Assembly: GCF_048403405.1 (NCBI RefSeq)
Contig: NZ_CP183129.1
Length of the DNA stretch: 64,000 nucleotides
Source of the DNA: Escherichia coli
GTDB taxonomy: Bacteria; Pseudomonadota; Gammaproteobacteria; Enterobacterales; Enterobacteriaceae
Reading direction: 5' to 3' (one strand)
This document shows positions 4,055-47,822 of this stretch, piece after piece. Positions within the stretch are counted from its first letter, which is position 1. Each line of letters opens with the position of its first letter. The notes under the pieces were generated by a model, which worked only from the letters and a program-made list of their open reading frames with translations, had not been told where the DNA came from and ran no database searches. The position numbers and the translations under genes are program-made.

Positions 4055-4918
4055 ATGCGTTGGCAAGGGCGACGTGAAAGTGACAATGTTGAAGACAGGC
4101 GCAACAGCTCTGGTGGTCCGTCAATGGGCGGTCCAGGTTTTCGCCTGCCAAGCGGTAAAGGCGGGCTGATTTTACTGATAGTCGTGCTGGTTGCAGGTTA
4201 CTATGGCGTTGATTTAACCGGGTTGATGACCGGACAGCCGGTTTCCCAACAGCAATCAACACGGTCAATTAGTCCTAATGAAGACGAAGCCGCAAAATTC
4301 ACTTCGGTGATTCTGGCAACCACGGAAGACACCTGGGGACAGCAATTCGAGAAGATGGGTAAAACCTATCAGCAACCGAAGCTGGTCATGTACCGTGGAA
4401 TGACGCGCACCGGCTGCGGGGCGGGCCAGTCCATTATGGGACCGTTCTATTGCCCGGCGGATGGCACGGTTTATATCGATCTCTCCTTCTATGATGACAT
4501 GAAAGACAAACTTGGCGCGGATGGCGATTTTGCCCAGGGGTACGTTATCGCCCATGAAGTCGGTCATCATGTGCAGAAACTGTTAGGCATCGAGCCGAAA
4601 GTTCGTCAACTGCAACAAAACGCGACGCAGGCGGAAGTGAACCGCTTATCTGTGCGTATGGAACTCCAGGCCGACTGTTTTGCTGGTGTCTGGGGGCATA
4701 GTATGCAGCAGCAAGGCGTTCTGGAAACCGGCGATCTGGAAGAGGCGCTGAACGCGGCGCAGGCCATCGGCGATGACCGTTTACAACAGCAAAGTCAGGG
4801 GCGAGTAGTACCAGACAGTTTCACTCATGGCACTTCTCAGCAACGCTACAGCTGGTTTAAACGTGGTTTCGACAGCGGCGATCCGGCACAATGCAATACT
4901 TTTGGTAAAAGCATTTAA
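4055..4918 (+). CDS. ypfJ: putative zinc metallopeptidase-like membrane-anchored protein YpfJ
   Basis: Track ORF 287 aa; N-terminal TM segment ([15 protein letters not shown]) and HEXXH-type motif HEVGHH. Confidence 0.8.
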
Positions 4919-4932
4919 CTTCCGGGGCAGGG

Positions 4933-6948
4933 ATGGCTGAACTAACTGCGCTTCACACATTAACAGCGCAAATGAAACGTGAAGGGATCCGCCGCTTGCT
5001 GGTGTTGAGCGGGGAAGAGGGTTGGTGTTTTGATCATGCGCTTAAGTTGCGTGATGCCTTACCTGGCGACTGGCTGTGGATTTCGCCGCAGCCAGATGCT
5101 GAAAACCACTGTTCACCCTCGGCGCTACAAACTTTACTTGGGCGCGAGTTCCGGCATGCGGTATTCGACGCCCGCCACGGCTTTGATGCCGCTGCCTTTG
5201 CGGCACTTAGCGGAACGTTGAAAGCGGGAAGTTGGCTGGTTTTGTTACTCCCTGTATGGGAAGAGTGGGAAAACCAACCTGATGCCGACTCGCTGCGCTG
5301 GAGTGATTGCCCTGACCCTATTGCGACGCCGCATTTTGTCCAGCATCTCAAACGCGTACTTACGGCGGATAACGACGCTATTCTCTGGCGGCAAAACCAG
5401 CCGTTCTCGTTGGCGCATTTTACTCCCCGTACTGACTGGCACCCCGCGACCGGCGCACCACAACCAGAACAACAGCAACTCTTACAGCAGCTACTGACCA
5501 TGCCGCCGGGCGTGGCAGCGGTAACTGCTGCGCGTGGGCGCGGTAAATCGGCGTTGGCAGGGCAACTCATTTCTCGTATTGCGGGCAGTGCGATTGTCAC
5601 CGCGCCCGCAAAAGCGGCAACGGATGTACTGGCACAATTTGCGGGCGAGAAGTTTCGCTTTATTGCGCCGGATGCCTTGTTAGCCAGCGATGAGCAAGCC
5701 GACTGGCTGGTGGTCGATGAAGCCGCAGCTATACCTGCGCCGTTGTTGCATCAACTGGTATCGCGTTTTCCTCGAACGTTGTTAACCACTACGGTGCAGG
5801 GCTACGAAGGCACCGGACGTGGTTTTTTGCTGAAATTTTGCGCTCGCTTTCCGCATTTACACCGTTTTGAACTACAACAGCCGATCCGCTGGGCGCAGGG
5901 ATGCCCGCTGGAAAAAATGGTTAGTGAGGCACTGGTGTTTGACGATGAAAACTTCACCCATACACCACAAGGCAATATCGTCATTGCCGCATTTGAACAG
6001 ACGTTATGGCGAAGTGAGCCAGAAACGCCGTTAAAGGTTTATCAGCTATTGTCTGGTGCGCACTACCGGACCTCGCCGCTGGATTTACGCCGCATGATGG
6101 ATGCACCAGGGCAACATTTTTTACAGGCGGCTGGCGACAACGAGATTGCCGGGGCGCTGTGGCTGGTGGATGAGGGGGGATTATCTCAACAACTCAGTCA
6201 GGCGGTATGGGCGGGTTTTCGTCGCCCGCGGGGTAATCTGGTGGCTCAGTCGCTGGCGGCGCACGGCAGCAATCCTCTGGCGGCGACATTGCGCGGACGG
6301 CGGGTCAGCCGGATAGCAGTTCATCCGGCTCGTCAGCGGGAAGGCACAGGGCGGCAACTTATTGCTGGTGCTTTGCAATATACGCGTGACCTCGACTATC
6401 TTTCGGTGAGTTTTGGTTACACCGGGGAGTTATGGCGTTTCTGGCAACGCTGCGGTTTTGTGCTGGTGCGAATGGGTAATCATCGTGAAGCCAGCAGCGG
6501 TTGCTATACGGCGATGGCGTTGTTACCGATGAGTGATGCGGGTAAACAGCTGGCTGAACGTGAGCATTACCGTTTACGTCGCGATGCGCAAGCTCTCGCG
6601 CAGTGGAATGGCGAAACGCTCCCTGTTGATCCACTAAACGATGCCGTCCTTTCTGACGACGACTGGCTTGAACTGGCCGGTTTTGCTTTCGCTCATCGTC
6701 CGCTATTAACGTCGTTAGGTTGCTTAATGCGTCTGTTACAAACCAGCGAACTGGCATTACCGGCGCTGCGTGGGCGTTTACAGAAAAACGCCAGTGACGC
6801 GCAGTTATGTACCACACTTAAACTTTCAGGCCGTAAGCTGTTACTGGTCCGTCAACGCGAAGAAGCCGCGCAGGCGCTGTTCGCACTTAATTATGTTCGC
6901 ACTGAGCGTCTGCGCGATCGCATAACGCAATGGCAATTTTTTCACTGA
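4933..6948 (+). CDS. tmcA: tRNA(Met) cytidine acetyltransferase TmcA (YpfI)
   Basis: 671 aa; P-loop ARGRGKSA, helicase-like core and C-terminal GNAT-like region; starts 14 bp after ypfJ. Confidence 0.88.
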   Translation: MAELTALHTLTAQMKREGIRRLLVLSGEEGWCFDHALKLRDALPGDWLWISPQPDAENHCSPSALQTLLGREFRHAVFDARHGFDAAAFAALSGTLKAGSWLVLLLPVWEEWENQPDADSLRWSDCPDPIATPHFVQHLKRVLTADNDAILWRQNQPFSLAHFTPRTDWHPATGAPQPEQQQLLQQLLTMPPGVAAVTAARGRGKSALAGQLISRIAGSAIVTAPAKAATDVLAQFAGEKFRFIAPDALLASDEQADWLVVDEAAAIPAPLLHQLVSRFPRTLLTTTVQGYEGTGRGFLLKFCARFPHLHRFELQQPIRWAQGCPLEKMVSEALVFDDENFTHTPQGNIVIAAFEQTLWRSEPETPLKVYQLLSGAHYRTSPLDLRRMMDAPGQHFLQAAGDNEIAGALWLVDEGGLSQQLSQAVWAGFRRPRGNLVAQSLAAHGSNPLAATLRGRRVSRIAVHPARQREGTGRQLIAGALQYTRDLDYLSVSFGYTGELWRFWQRCGFVLVRMGNHREASSGCYTAMALLPMSDAGKQLAEREHYRLRRDAQALAQWNGETLPVDPLNDAVLSDDDWLELAGFAFAHRPLLTSLGCLMRLLQTSELALPALRGRLQKNASDAQLCTTLKLSGRKLLLVRQREEAAQALFALNYVRTERLRDRITQWQFFH

Positions 6949-43294: not shown

Positions 43295-43305
43295 TTTGCG
43301 TCTGA

Positions 43306-44289
<984 letters not shown>

Positions 44290-44312
44290 GCGTTTCTGAT
44301 TCATTGATTAAA

Positions 44313-44345
44313 GGCCAGCCAGTAACACAACTGACTGGCCTTTTT
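44313..44345 (+). terminator. intrinsic terminator after yfeX
   Basis: GGCCAGCCAGT-aacaca-ACTGACTGGCC (one mismatch) followed by TTTTT. Confidence 0.7.
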
Positions 44346-44374
44346 ATTACTGCTTTAACGCCGCATACACTTGA

Positions 44375-44464
44375 TCAACTACTTTCTGTCAGAACAGGGT
44401 ATTTTGCGGCGCTGACGCTACAGCTGACAGCCAGCAGAGAAAGATAGAGCATTGTCCGTTTCAT
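44375..44464 (-). pseudogene. 29-codon ORF with Sec-signal-peptide-like sequence, 4 bp downstream of murP; possible remnant of the gene occupying this position in K-12 (yfeW/pbp4B)
   Basis: Minus-strand ATG (complement of 44462-44464) gives MKRTMLYLSLLAVSCSVSAAKYPVLTESS then TGA. Assignment as a remnant is an inference; I cannot verify similarity to YfeW. Confidence 0.35.
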
Positions 44465-44468
44465 GATA

Positions 44469-45893
<1,425 letters not shown>

Positions 45894-45896
45894 GGG

Positions 45897-46793
45897 TTAT
45901 TCCTTGTCTAAAACCTGACGAATAAAGCCGCCGTGTTGATCCAGGCGTTTTTTAGCTTCTGCGGCATCGAGATTTTTCAGCACCATCACAATGGCCGTTT
46001 TACAGTTGCGCTCGCAGGCAACCAATGCCGCTTCCGCTTGCTCTGCGCTACATCCGGTAGCGTTTTTGACGATATTGACCTGGCGCACATGCAGTTTTTC
46101 GTTGGTGGCGACCACATCGACCATCAGGTTGCCGAACACTTTGCCGGATTTAATCATCAGCCCGGTGGAGAGCATATTGAGCACCAGTTTCTGCGCTGTA
46201 CCTGCTTTCATCCGCGAAGAACCGGTAACCACTTCGGCACCTACAATCGGTGTAATGGCAAACTCTGCGGTGGTTGAAACGGCGCTCCCCGGATTACAGG
46301 AAATTCCCACTGTGCGGCAACCGAGCTGGCGGGCGTATTCCAGTCCGGCAATCACATACGGCGTACGACCGCTGGCGGCAATACCGACCACCACATCCTG
46401 TGCCGTTAAATTAATATTTTTCAGATCGTTAACGCCGCCTTCCCGGCTATCTTCCGCGCCTTCCACCGCGTGCTGAATGGCATATTCGCCGCCAGCAATC
46501 AAACCAACTACCAGGCCCGGTTTCACGCCGTAGGTCGGCGGACATTCACTGGCATCAAGAATACCCAGACGACCAGAGGTCCCCGCACCGATGTAAATCA
46601 GACGGCCGCCGCCGCTCACCTGGGCGTGAATAACATCGATCGCCGCTGCAATATCCGGCAGTACGCGCTCAACGGCGAGTGGTACGGTTTTATCTTCATC
46701 GTTGATAATCCGGCACATTTCCAGCGTCGAAACGCGGTCAATTTCAGCCGAGGCGGCATTCGAGCCTTCGGTAATCATCTTTTCAAGTTGCAT
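45897..46793 (-). CDS. murQ: N-acetylmuramic acid 6-phosphate etherase
   Basis: 298 aa SIS-domain protein, [26 protein letters not shown]...; 3 bp upstream of murP. Confidence 0.92.
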
Positions 46794-46964
46794 CAGTGGT
46801 GACCTTAGTATTCACAATCAAATAATTGCATATTGATGGAATCATATATCTCAATTTGCTAGTTTTAAAGGAATCATTGAGTCTGAAATCACAGAGTGTG
46901 AAGAGCGTCAAAGGGCAAAATCCGTGTGCTATGCTGCGCGCAGGATGTGGTGAGGGAGTGGAAG

Positions 46965-47822
46965 ATGTTGTACCTGACGAAAATACGCAATGCGGAAAGT
47001 GAATTTACCGAGAACGAGCAAAAAATTGCTGACTTTCTGCGGGCCAACGTGAGTGAGCTGAAATCCGTCTCTTCGCGCAAGATGGCGAAACAGCTCGGCA
47101 TCAGCCAGTCGAGTATTGTGAAGTTTGCCCAGAAGCTCGGTGCGCAAGGATTTACTGAATTGCGTATGGCGTTAATTGGCGAATACAGTGCTAGCCGGGA
47201 GAAAACGAATGCCACGGCGCTGCACCTGCACAGTTCGATTACCAGTGATGATTCGCTGGAAGTGATTGCCCGCAAATTGAATCGCGAAAAAGAGCTGGCG
47301 CTGGAGCAAACCTGTGCGTTGTTCGACTACGCGCGGTTGCAAAAAATCATTGAGGTCATCAGTAAAGCACCGTTTATCCAGATAACGGGCCTGGGTGGGT
47401 CGGCGCTGGTGGGGCGCGATCTTTCATTCAAACTGATGAAAATTGGTTATCGTGTGGCCTGTGAAGCTGACACGCATGTACAAGCCACCGTTTCCCAGGC
47501 GCTGAAAAAAGGCGATGTACAAATCGCTATCTCTTACAGCGGCAGTAAAAAAGAGATTGTCTTGTGCGCCGAGGCAGCGCGAAAGCAGGGGGCAACGGTG
47601 ATTGCCATTACCTCATTAACCGATTCCCCGCTGCGGCGGCTGGCGCATTACACCCTCGATACCGTTTCTGGCGAAACCGAATGGCGCAGCTCGTCGATGT
47701 CCACCCGCACGGCGCAAAATTCTGTTACCGATTTACTGTTTGTTGGCCTTGTGCAACTCAATGATGTGGAGTCATTGAAAATGATTGAGCGCAGCAGTGA
47801 GCTAACGCAACGCCTGAAATGA
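46965..47822 (+). CDS. murR: RpiR-family repressor MurR
   Basis: ATG 46965: [32 protein letters not shown]... (285 aa), HTH + SIS domains; divergent from murQP. The track start is GTG at 46926. Confidence 0.9.

Follow-up and report, generated by a model that had tools for sequence, protein, structure and literature searches.

A pseudogene remnant of pbp4b (yfeW) between murP and yfeX of Escherichia coli: a shared internal deletion, probably spread between lineages by recombination

Results

The murP-yfeX gap and its anatomy

In the 64,000-nt stretch of E. coli DNA analysed here (contig NZ_CP183129.1 of assembly GCF_048403405.1, hereafter the window), the region between murP and yfeX (44290..44468, the yfeX stop codon ending at 44289) is best explained as a pseudogene remnant of pbp4b (yfeW). 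One old, GT-flanked deletion of 1184 nt would have created a null allele, which was then spread by recombination. We give this reading a probability of about 0.96. The first-pass annotation of the window had pointed to a gap of about 180 bp (exactly 179 nt), to a minus-strand mini-ORF located 4 bp past the murP stop and to a second frame reading VDQVYAALKQ-stop, and all of these are present.

K-12 MG1655 carries, in this order, murR (divergent), murQ, murP, pbp4b and the convergent yfeX. There pbp4b is 1305 nt long and starts 4 nt past the murP stop, and the murP-yfeX gap, pbp4b included, amounts to 1548 nt. The murQ-murP-yfeW arrangement that the first-pass annotation gave for K-12 is thus the real one. 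According to PMC5061867, this murQ operon is controlled by MurR and has a terminator after yfeW. The scar occupies the very position of pbp4b, directly 3′ of murP and convergent with yfeX. The neighbouring genes are complete (Table 1), and the record of strain WP4-S18-ESBL-07, which matches the window at 100% identity, annotates the same gene as murP.

Table 1. Features of the murR-yfeX region in the window (positions of the 64,000-nt stretch).
Feature	Position	Strand	Remarks
yfeX (porphyrinogen peroxidase)	43390..44289	+	intact, convergent with murP
Hairpin, 14-bp stem, 6-nt loop	44310..44343	.	between the convergent murQP(-pbp4b) operon and yfeX; outside the deletion, intact
pbp4b 3′ remnant, 31 nt + TAA	44347..44380	-	TAA 44349..44347; VVDQVYAALKQ* in the original frame
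SNP specific to the deletion allele	44371	-	ATCAAG, versus ATCAGG in intact genes; tenth base after the junction
Mini-ORF MKRTMLYLSLLAVSCSVSAAKYPVLTESS, 29 codons + TGA	44375..44464	-	ATG at 44464; TGA 44377..44375
Deletion junction	44380..44381	-	1184 nt (nt 85-1268 of the 1302-nt allele) absent between the two bases
pbp4b 5′ remnant, 84 nt, codons 1-28 (signal-peptide region)	44381..44464	-	includes the GT microhomology 44382..44381
murP-pbp4b spacer TATC, 4 nt	44465..44468	-	spacing as in K-12; 2 nt in Nissle-like deletion alleles
murP (PTS MurNAc transporter IIBC)	44469..45893	-	intact, 474 aa; stop TGA 44471..44469; from the ORF list
murQ (MurNAc-6-P etherase)	45897..46793	-	intact; first gene of the operon
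murR (divergent operon repressor)	46965..47822	+	intact

When aligned to K-12, the region falls into three pieces: the end of murP with the first ~83 nt of pbp4b, the last ~35 nt of pbp4b with the hairpin, and the end of yfeX. Both ends of pbp4b are kept and its middle is lost, and the deletion scar of yfeW proposed in the first-pass annotation is indeed what the alignment recovers, with 1184 nt internal to the gene missing. Up to the junction, 137 of 139 nt match the murP-end/pbp4b-start of K-12, and the 3′ piece matches the end of pbp4b; these matches are far beyond chance. By reference to KGu016, an intact allele of the 1302-nt type, nt 1-84 and 1269-1302 have been retained. The 5′ remnant is the same as in the intact alleles of KGu016, SBF22 and RIVM_C019217 at 84/84 nt, and the 34-nt 3′ remnant differs from intact alleles by one SNP. 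A GT is found at both breakpoints (...GAAAGT|TCGCC... and ...TTGGGT|AGTTG...), constituting a 2-nt microhomology. Accordingly, the two halves of a 91-nt query spanning the junction align in intact genomes as 1-45 and 44-91, sharing this GT.

The missing segment is not a multiple of three (1184 mod 3 = 2, a +2 frameshift), so the two remnants are out of frame with each other and the 5′ remnant meets a TGA after one extra codon. The mini-ORF formed in this way reproduces PBP4B residues 1-29 exactly, and the downstream tail does so for residues 423-433, as anticipated in the first-pass annotation, which took them for the N-terminus of YfeW and the C-terminus of the lost gene. The match at residue 29 (S) is coincidental, being made across the junction, and only 28 codons are truly kept.

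None of the catalytic motifs of this serine β-lactamase-fold enzyme, namely S102-N-T-K (S-x-x-K), Y167-P-N (Y-x-N) and H371-T-G in K-12 PBP4B numbering, is left, as all of them lie in the deleted residues 29-422, which makes the allele a PBP4B null. The NCBIfam PBP4B equivalog model (NF002968) has a curated whole-protein cut-off of 385 bits; K-12 PBP4B reaches 890 bits on it, against 25.7 bits for the mini-ORF. The mini-ORF aligns to model positions 1-28 with E = 4.7e-6, so the likeness to a PBP4B N-terminus on which the first-pass proposal hinged is there; as a functional PBP4B, the mini-ORF has neither the score nor the active-site motifs. The locus is a pseudogene in the usual sense: both termini of the parent gene are recognisable, the frame is broken and no full-length product is possible. 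To summarize the comparison with K-12 pbp4b/yfeW (NF002968), the scar sits at the same place, flanked by murP and yfeX, and likewise begins 4 nt past the murP stop; its first 28 and last 10 codons plus stop match those of intact alleles. It is unlike K-12 pbp4b in having lost 1184 of 1302 nt, in its out-of-frame ends and in the lack of any catalytic motif, and it is not a member of the functional family.

RefSeq/PGAP labels the equivalent stretch as an unnamed pseudo CDS ('hypothetical protein'; 'incomplete; partial in the middle of a contig; missing C-terminus') in BL21, Nissle 1917, SF-166 and other strains. The feature and its junction are those of the window. The naming of the parent gene and the 1184-nt deletion in pbp4b are identified here; the RefSeq pseudo CDS gives neither, and it omits the 3′ remnant.

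Presence of pbp4b as the ancestral state

The reverse polarity would start from a short ancestral locus, with pbp4b gained by insertion between murP and yfeX in the remaining 76% of strains. It would account for the bare pattern of presence and absence, and for nothing more. However, an empty insertion site would hold neither end of the gene, and the short allele holds both (84 nt in 5′, 34 nt in 3′, in different frames). A degenerate DNA pattern over the catalytic motif retrieved pbp4b homologues in 102 species-representative genomes. By tblastn, the murP-pbp4b-yfeX synteny was found in Escherichia whittamii, Escherichia sp. E1V33, Escherichia sp. MOD1-EC7003 and Citrobacter, and the murP-pbp4b adjacency in Superficieibacter, Lelliottia, Huaxiibacter and Enterobacter chuandaensis. 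Since the full synteny extends to other Escherichia species and to Citrobacter, the presence of pbp4b is the ancestral state. Together with the location of the gene after murP in these other genera of Enterobacteriaceae, this makes the insertion scenario exceedingly improbable, and we rejected it as refuted by the anatomy of the remnant.

The deletion is a common allele of E. coli

We surveyed 5426 complete E. coli genomes, a set biased to clinical isolates. Intact pbp4b (at least 80% of the gene) is present in 4148 of them (76%), and neither K-12 nor this majority has the 180-nt spacing, the general occurrence of which would have spoken against the deletion proposed in the first-pass annotation. 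A 1001-nt query recovered the exact junction in 1274 genomes and the 91-nt query spanning it did so in 1272, i.e., in ~23% of a collection skewed to clinical isolates, a share that is not a natural allele frequency. The intact and deleted classes add up to all but ~4 of the 5426 genomes. The survey of other strains advised in the first-pass annotation thus reveals a common allele rather than a peculiarity of one strain, its carriers including BL21, Nissle 1917, ATCC 25922 and SF-166. The search for pbp4b in the surveyed genomes returned a single place per genome, and a second copy elsewhere in the genome is unlikely.

An assembly or sequencing artefact in the window was also considered and rejected. 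Nothing counts for it, and with an identical junction in 1272-1274 independently assembled complete genomes its probability is negligible.

Over 1001 nt, the window is 100% identical to WP4-S18-ESBL-07, where the stretch is a pseudo CDS with locus tag H7R53_RS26325, and over 24 kb it is 100% identical to MS 69-1, TUM1226, GN02461 and a few others. Because only 11 genomes are at least 99% identical to it, the window represents a minor, MS 69-1-like lineage, distinct from the BL21-like and Nissle-like ones. The junction pattern gave 0 matches in a collection of one genome per species. We have no evidence for the scar outside E. coli, and it appears to be an intraspecific polymorphism.

One deletion, several haplotypes

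Is the allele the product of one event or of many? We compared 11 deletion alleles, out of ~1274, and 8 intact alleles, picked from identity-ranked lists across the identity range. The junction is the same, base for base, in 11/11 deletion alleles. The tenth base past it (44371 in the window) is an A in all 11 deletion alleles and a G in 8/8 intact alleles. Moreover, intact pbp4b exists in two lengths: 1305 nt, ending in ...ALKQK* (K-12, O157, PSJ-36, 63-2 and VTB97420v), and 1302 nt, ending in ...ALKQ* with one C-terminal codon fewer (KGu016, SBF22, GF4-3 and RIVM_C019217). The difference maps to 44347-44352 in the window and to 4730-4741 in the K-12 locus (L001). All 11 deletion alleles carry the short 3′ end ...AAAGCAGTAA, and this is true of BL21 too, although its surrounding haplotype is of the 1305-nt type.

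The flanks tell another part of the history. The deletion alleles are embedded in at least four haplotypes, represented respectively by Nissle, SF-166, A26, N17, R14 and G749 (Nissle-like); by BL21 and DP051; by the window and WP4-S18; and by GF43. Nissle and ATCC 25922 we take to be of phylogroup B2, and BL21 presumably belongs to the B lineage. These flanks are often nearer to those of intact alleles than to those of other deletion alleles. Indeed, the last 300 nt of murP in the window show 0 differences with the intact VTB97420v and 14 with Nissle, and yfeX of BL21 shows 3-4 differences with the intact O157 and 63-2 and 21 with Nissle. The identity between the window and Nissle is limited to ~199 nt, 45 nt on the upstream and 154 nt on the downstream side of the junction. 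Compared with the intact SBF22, and leaving aside the deletion and the SNP at +10, the window is identical over the 84-nt 5′ remnant and 96 nt downstream.

A repeated origin of the same 1184-nt deletion, at a hotspot and in different lineages, could also yield an allele carried by four or more flank haplotypes. However, a 2-nt GT microhomology is far too short to direct repeated identical deletions. Furthermore, such a recurrence would have to place next to the junction, each time, a SNP seen in 11/11 deletion and 0/8 intact alleles, and a short 3′ end even where the haplotype is of the longer type, as in BL21. We regard it as very improbable. The simplest reading, as we infer from these alignments, is a single old deletion that would have occurred on a 1302-nt-type allele and would later have been moved between lineages by short homologous-recombination tracts.

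The mini-ORF

The 29-codon ORF could have been retained because it encodes a small secreted or membrane peptide with a function of its own, its translation being coupled to that of murP. In 11/11 deletion alleles the start codon, the 2-4-nt spacing from the murP stop and the signal-peptide-like n-h-c sequence with its V/L-S-A motif are intact, and the ORF still lies within the murQP transcription unit, upstream of the hairpin. By inspection, MKR / TMLYLSLLAVS / CSVSA-A agrees with the (-3,-1) rule. Nevertheless, after cleavage of the signal peptide only ~10 residues would be left, and at a divergence of at most 4% an 87-nt ORF is expected to remain open by chance. The substitutions in the 28 kept codons also argue against retention. 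Those specific to deletion alleles are V13I, V17L, A20T, T26A, T26I and S28G, versus one synonymous change, while those specific to intact alleles comprise two synonymous changes (L11 CTA, S28 AGC) and one amino-acid-changing one (Y22F). Two more synonymous sites, V13 (GTC/GTT) and S14 (AGC/AGT), vary in both kinds of alleles. This pattern fits relaxed constraint, with the small numbers that 11 deletion alleles provide. A retained peptide is thus improbable, and the mini-ORF is better regarded as part of the pseudogene remnant.

The murP-pbp4b spacer itself is variable. At the equivalent of window positions 44465-44468, it is 2 nt long in the Nissle/SF-166-like deletion alleles (TGATTATG), compared with 4 nt (TGATATCATG), and it reads TAAT or TATT elsewhere, making this translational-coupling site a small hotspot of indels and SNPs.

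The hairpin between the convergent units

The hairpin located between the two convergent units folds as RNA at -24.5 kcal/mol (z = -5.8), 0/200 shuffled sequences being equally stable, and is a stable, G+C-rich structure. An A-run and a T-run lie on either side of its stem. Beyond the stem, the plus strand, which is the yfeX side, reads TTTTTATT, and the minus strand, the murQP side, has only TTT, then AATCAAT. On the predicted fold, the hairpin is likely a bidirectional intrinsic terminator shared by both units. A scan for consensus promoters and terminators over 44150-44650 returned no promoter, and no terminator on either strand. The scan probably misses the hairpin because the folded stem runs through the A/T runs, the T-run being counted as stem, and a negative from such a simple terminator scan is weak evidence. 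An Rfam search of 43300-47000 at E <= 1 gave no match, hence no known RNA family in the gap.

The longer pbp4b-yfeX spacer of K-12

The spacer between pbp4b and yfeX measures 239 nt in K-12 MG1655 (L001 4742-4980) and in 63-2, and 57 nt in the window (44290-44346) and in most intact alleles. The additional ~182 nt of K-12 contain two REP-like palindromes, and a copy of the terminator hairpin stands at either end (L001 ~4746-4775 and ~4929-4960). We found the complete K-12-type spacer in 1402 genomes. Since its core occurs at at least ~40 places per genome, the insert is a dispersed repeat of the REP/BIME type, which was inserted with duplication of the hairpin. This refines the comparison between the two loci, as the 182 nt are an insertion of the K-12 lineage and not a loss in the window. 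Neither of the two REP sequences of this insert matches anywhere in the window when up to 3 mismatches are allowed. Overall, the locus is found in three common states: intact with the short spacer (~2746 genomes), intact with the BIME (~1402) and deleted (~1274). In KGu016 (L012 5518-5920), a tnpA of the IS200/IS605 family is annotated directly past yfeX, where yfeY is found in other strains.

Discussion

From the structure and the distribution of the remnant, the following scenario can be proposed. Where intact, pbp4b (yfeW) is the third gene, after murQ and murP, of an operon controlled by MurR. Illegitimate recombination between two GT dinucleotides, presumably mediated by this microhomology, would have removed 1184 nt in a single event. 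Codons 1-28 and the final 31 nt with the stop codon remain, and their out-of-frame fusion gives the 29-codon mini-ORF. No observation speaks against the deletion as such. This deletion would have occurred once, long ago, and homologous recombination would then have carried the allele into several E. coli lineages.

What would be the consequences for the cell? As murQ, murP, murR, yfeX and the hairpin are untouched, MurNAc uptake and catabolism should still work. PBP4B is expressed at a very low level, ~20-30 molecules per generation, according to PMC4916385. Moreover, its DD-carboxypeptidase activity is reported not to be essential for growth, as stated in the title of Vega and Ayala (2006) cited in PMC5061867 and PMC4916385. 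Because of this low expression and of the dispensable activity, loss of pbp4b is expected to be nearly neutral in the laboratory, and we infer that the deletion has no phenotype. The wide spread of a null allele shows that pbp4b is dispensable in nature too, in agreement with the laboratory result.

A different significance can be imagined for the loss if PBP4B is not a redundant DD-carboxypeptidase. In Bacillus subtilis, AmiE (YbbE) is a MurNAc-L-Ala amidase encoded in a murQ-murR-murP-amiE-nagZ cluster. Like PBP4B, AmiE belongs to the PF00144 β-lactamase family, is encoded with murQ and murP and is controlled by MurR (PMC10653849, in its Table 1, and PMC5061867). In contrast to AmiE, PBP4B is called a DD-carboxypeptidase, and not an amidase, in the literature, and the two proteins are likened here by family and operon context, not by their sequences. 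A sequence search of the PDB returned neither a PBP4B nor an AmiE structure, only distant relatives of the S12/β-lactamase fold.

The genomic context of the family points in the same direction. Even with short flanks, in ~48 of the 102 species-representative loci (L020-L121) the PBP4B-family gene, whose product is 40-55% identical to E. coli PBP4B, has a murQ and/or murP homologue no more than a few kb away, examples being L110 (3850-8840), L099 (3470-7811), L071, L080, L096, L043 and L033. The hosts of these linked genes include Tetragenococcus, Atopobium/Lancefieldella, Collinsella, Leptotrichia, Clostridiales and MAGs of Mycoplasmataceae, and the linkage spans Enterobacteriaceae, Firmicutes, Actinobacteria and Fusobacteria. 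Two Firmicute proteins of the family, encoded after murP, score 545 and 563 bits on NF002968, above its cut-off. They are 634-645 aa long, with extensions of ~135 aa at the N-terminus and ~75-85 aa at the C-terminus.

This linkage across phyla and the analogy with AmiE, a PF00144 protein of a MurR regulon, suggest that PBP4B may work in MurNAc-peptide salvage. Pushed further, the analogy would make PBP4B a periplasmic, AmiE-like enzyme processing MurNAc-peptides, and the deletion a natural knockout, spread by recombination and possibly selected, that alters muropeptide scavenging or shedding. We consider this unlikely. If it were true, about a quarter of sequenced E. coli, Nissle-like lineages included, would be altered in muropeptide scavenging or shedding. 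In a weaker variant of this salvage reading, the 29-codon signal-peptide ORF coupled to murP may still be expressed and may have gained a role. The comparison with AmiE concerns the role of the lost gene and leaves the identity of the scar, a remnant of pbp4b, unchanged.

In practice, ~23% of complete E. coli genomes, those of BL21, Nissle 1917 and ATCC 25922 among them, are null for pbp4b by nature. Results obtained in K-12 on PBP profiles, β-lactam binding or yfeW expression therefore cannot be carried over to these strains unless the allele has been checked. Internal-deletion pseudogenes are of a familiar kind, and over a thousand public annotations already list this one as pseudo. A literature search for yfeW or PBP4B combined with deletion, pseudogene or BL21 found, among the papers it covered, none describing the deletion. 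The finding raises no new mechanistic question and its practical value is modest. It provides a clean, small example of one deletion allele that was probably carried across lineages by short recombination tracts. BL21(DE3) has been studied by RNA-seq together with HMS174(DE3) (PMC10768439). The sequenced BL21 genomes have only a 118-nt remnant of the gene, and BL21 reads assigned to yfeW would stem from this remnant within the murQP transcript.
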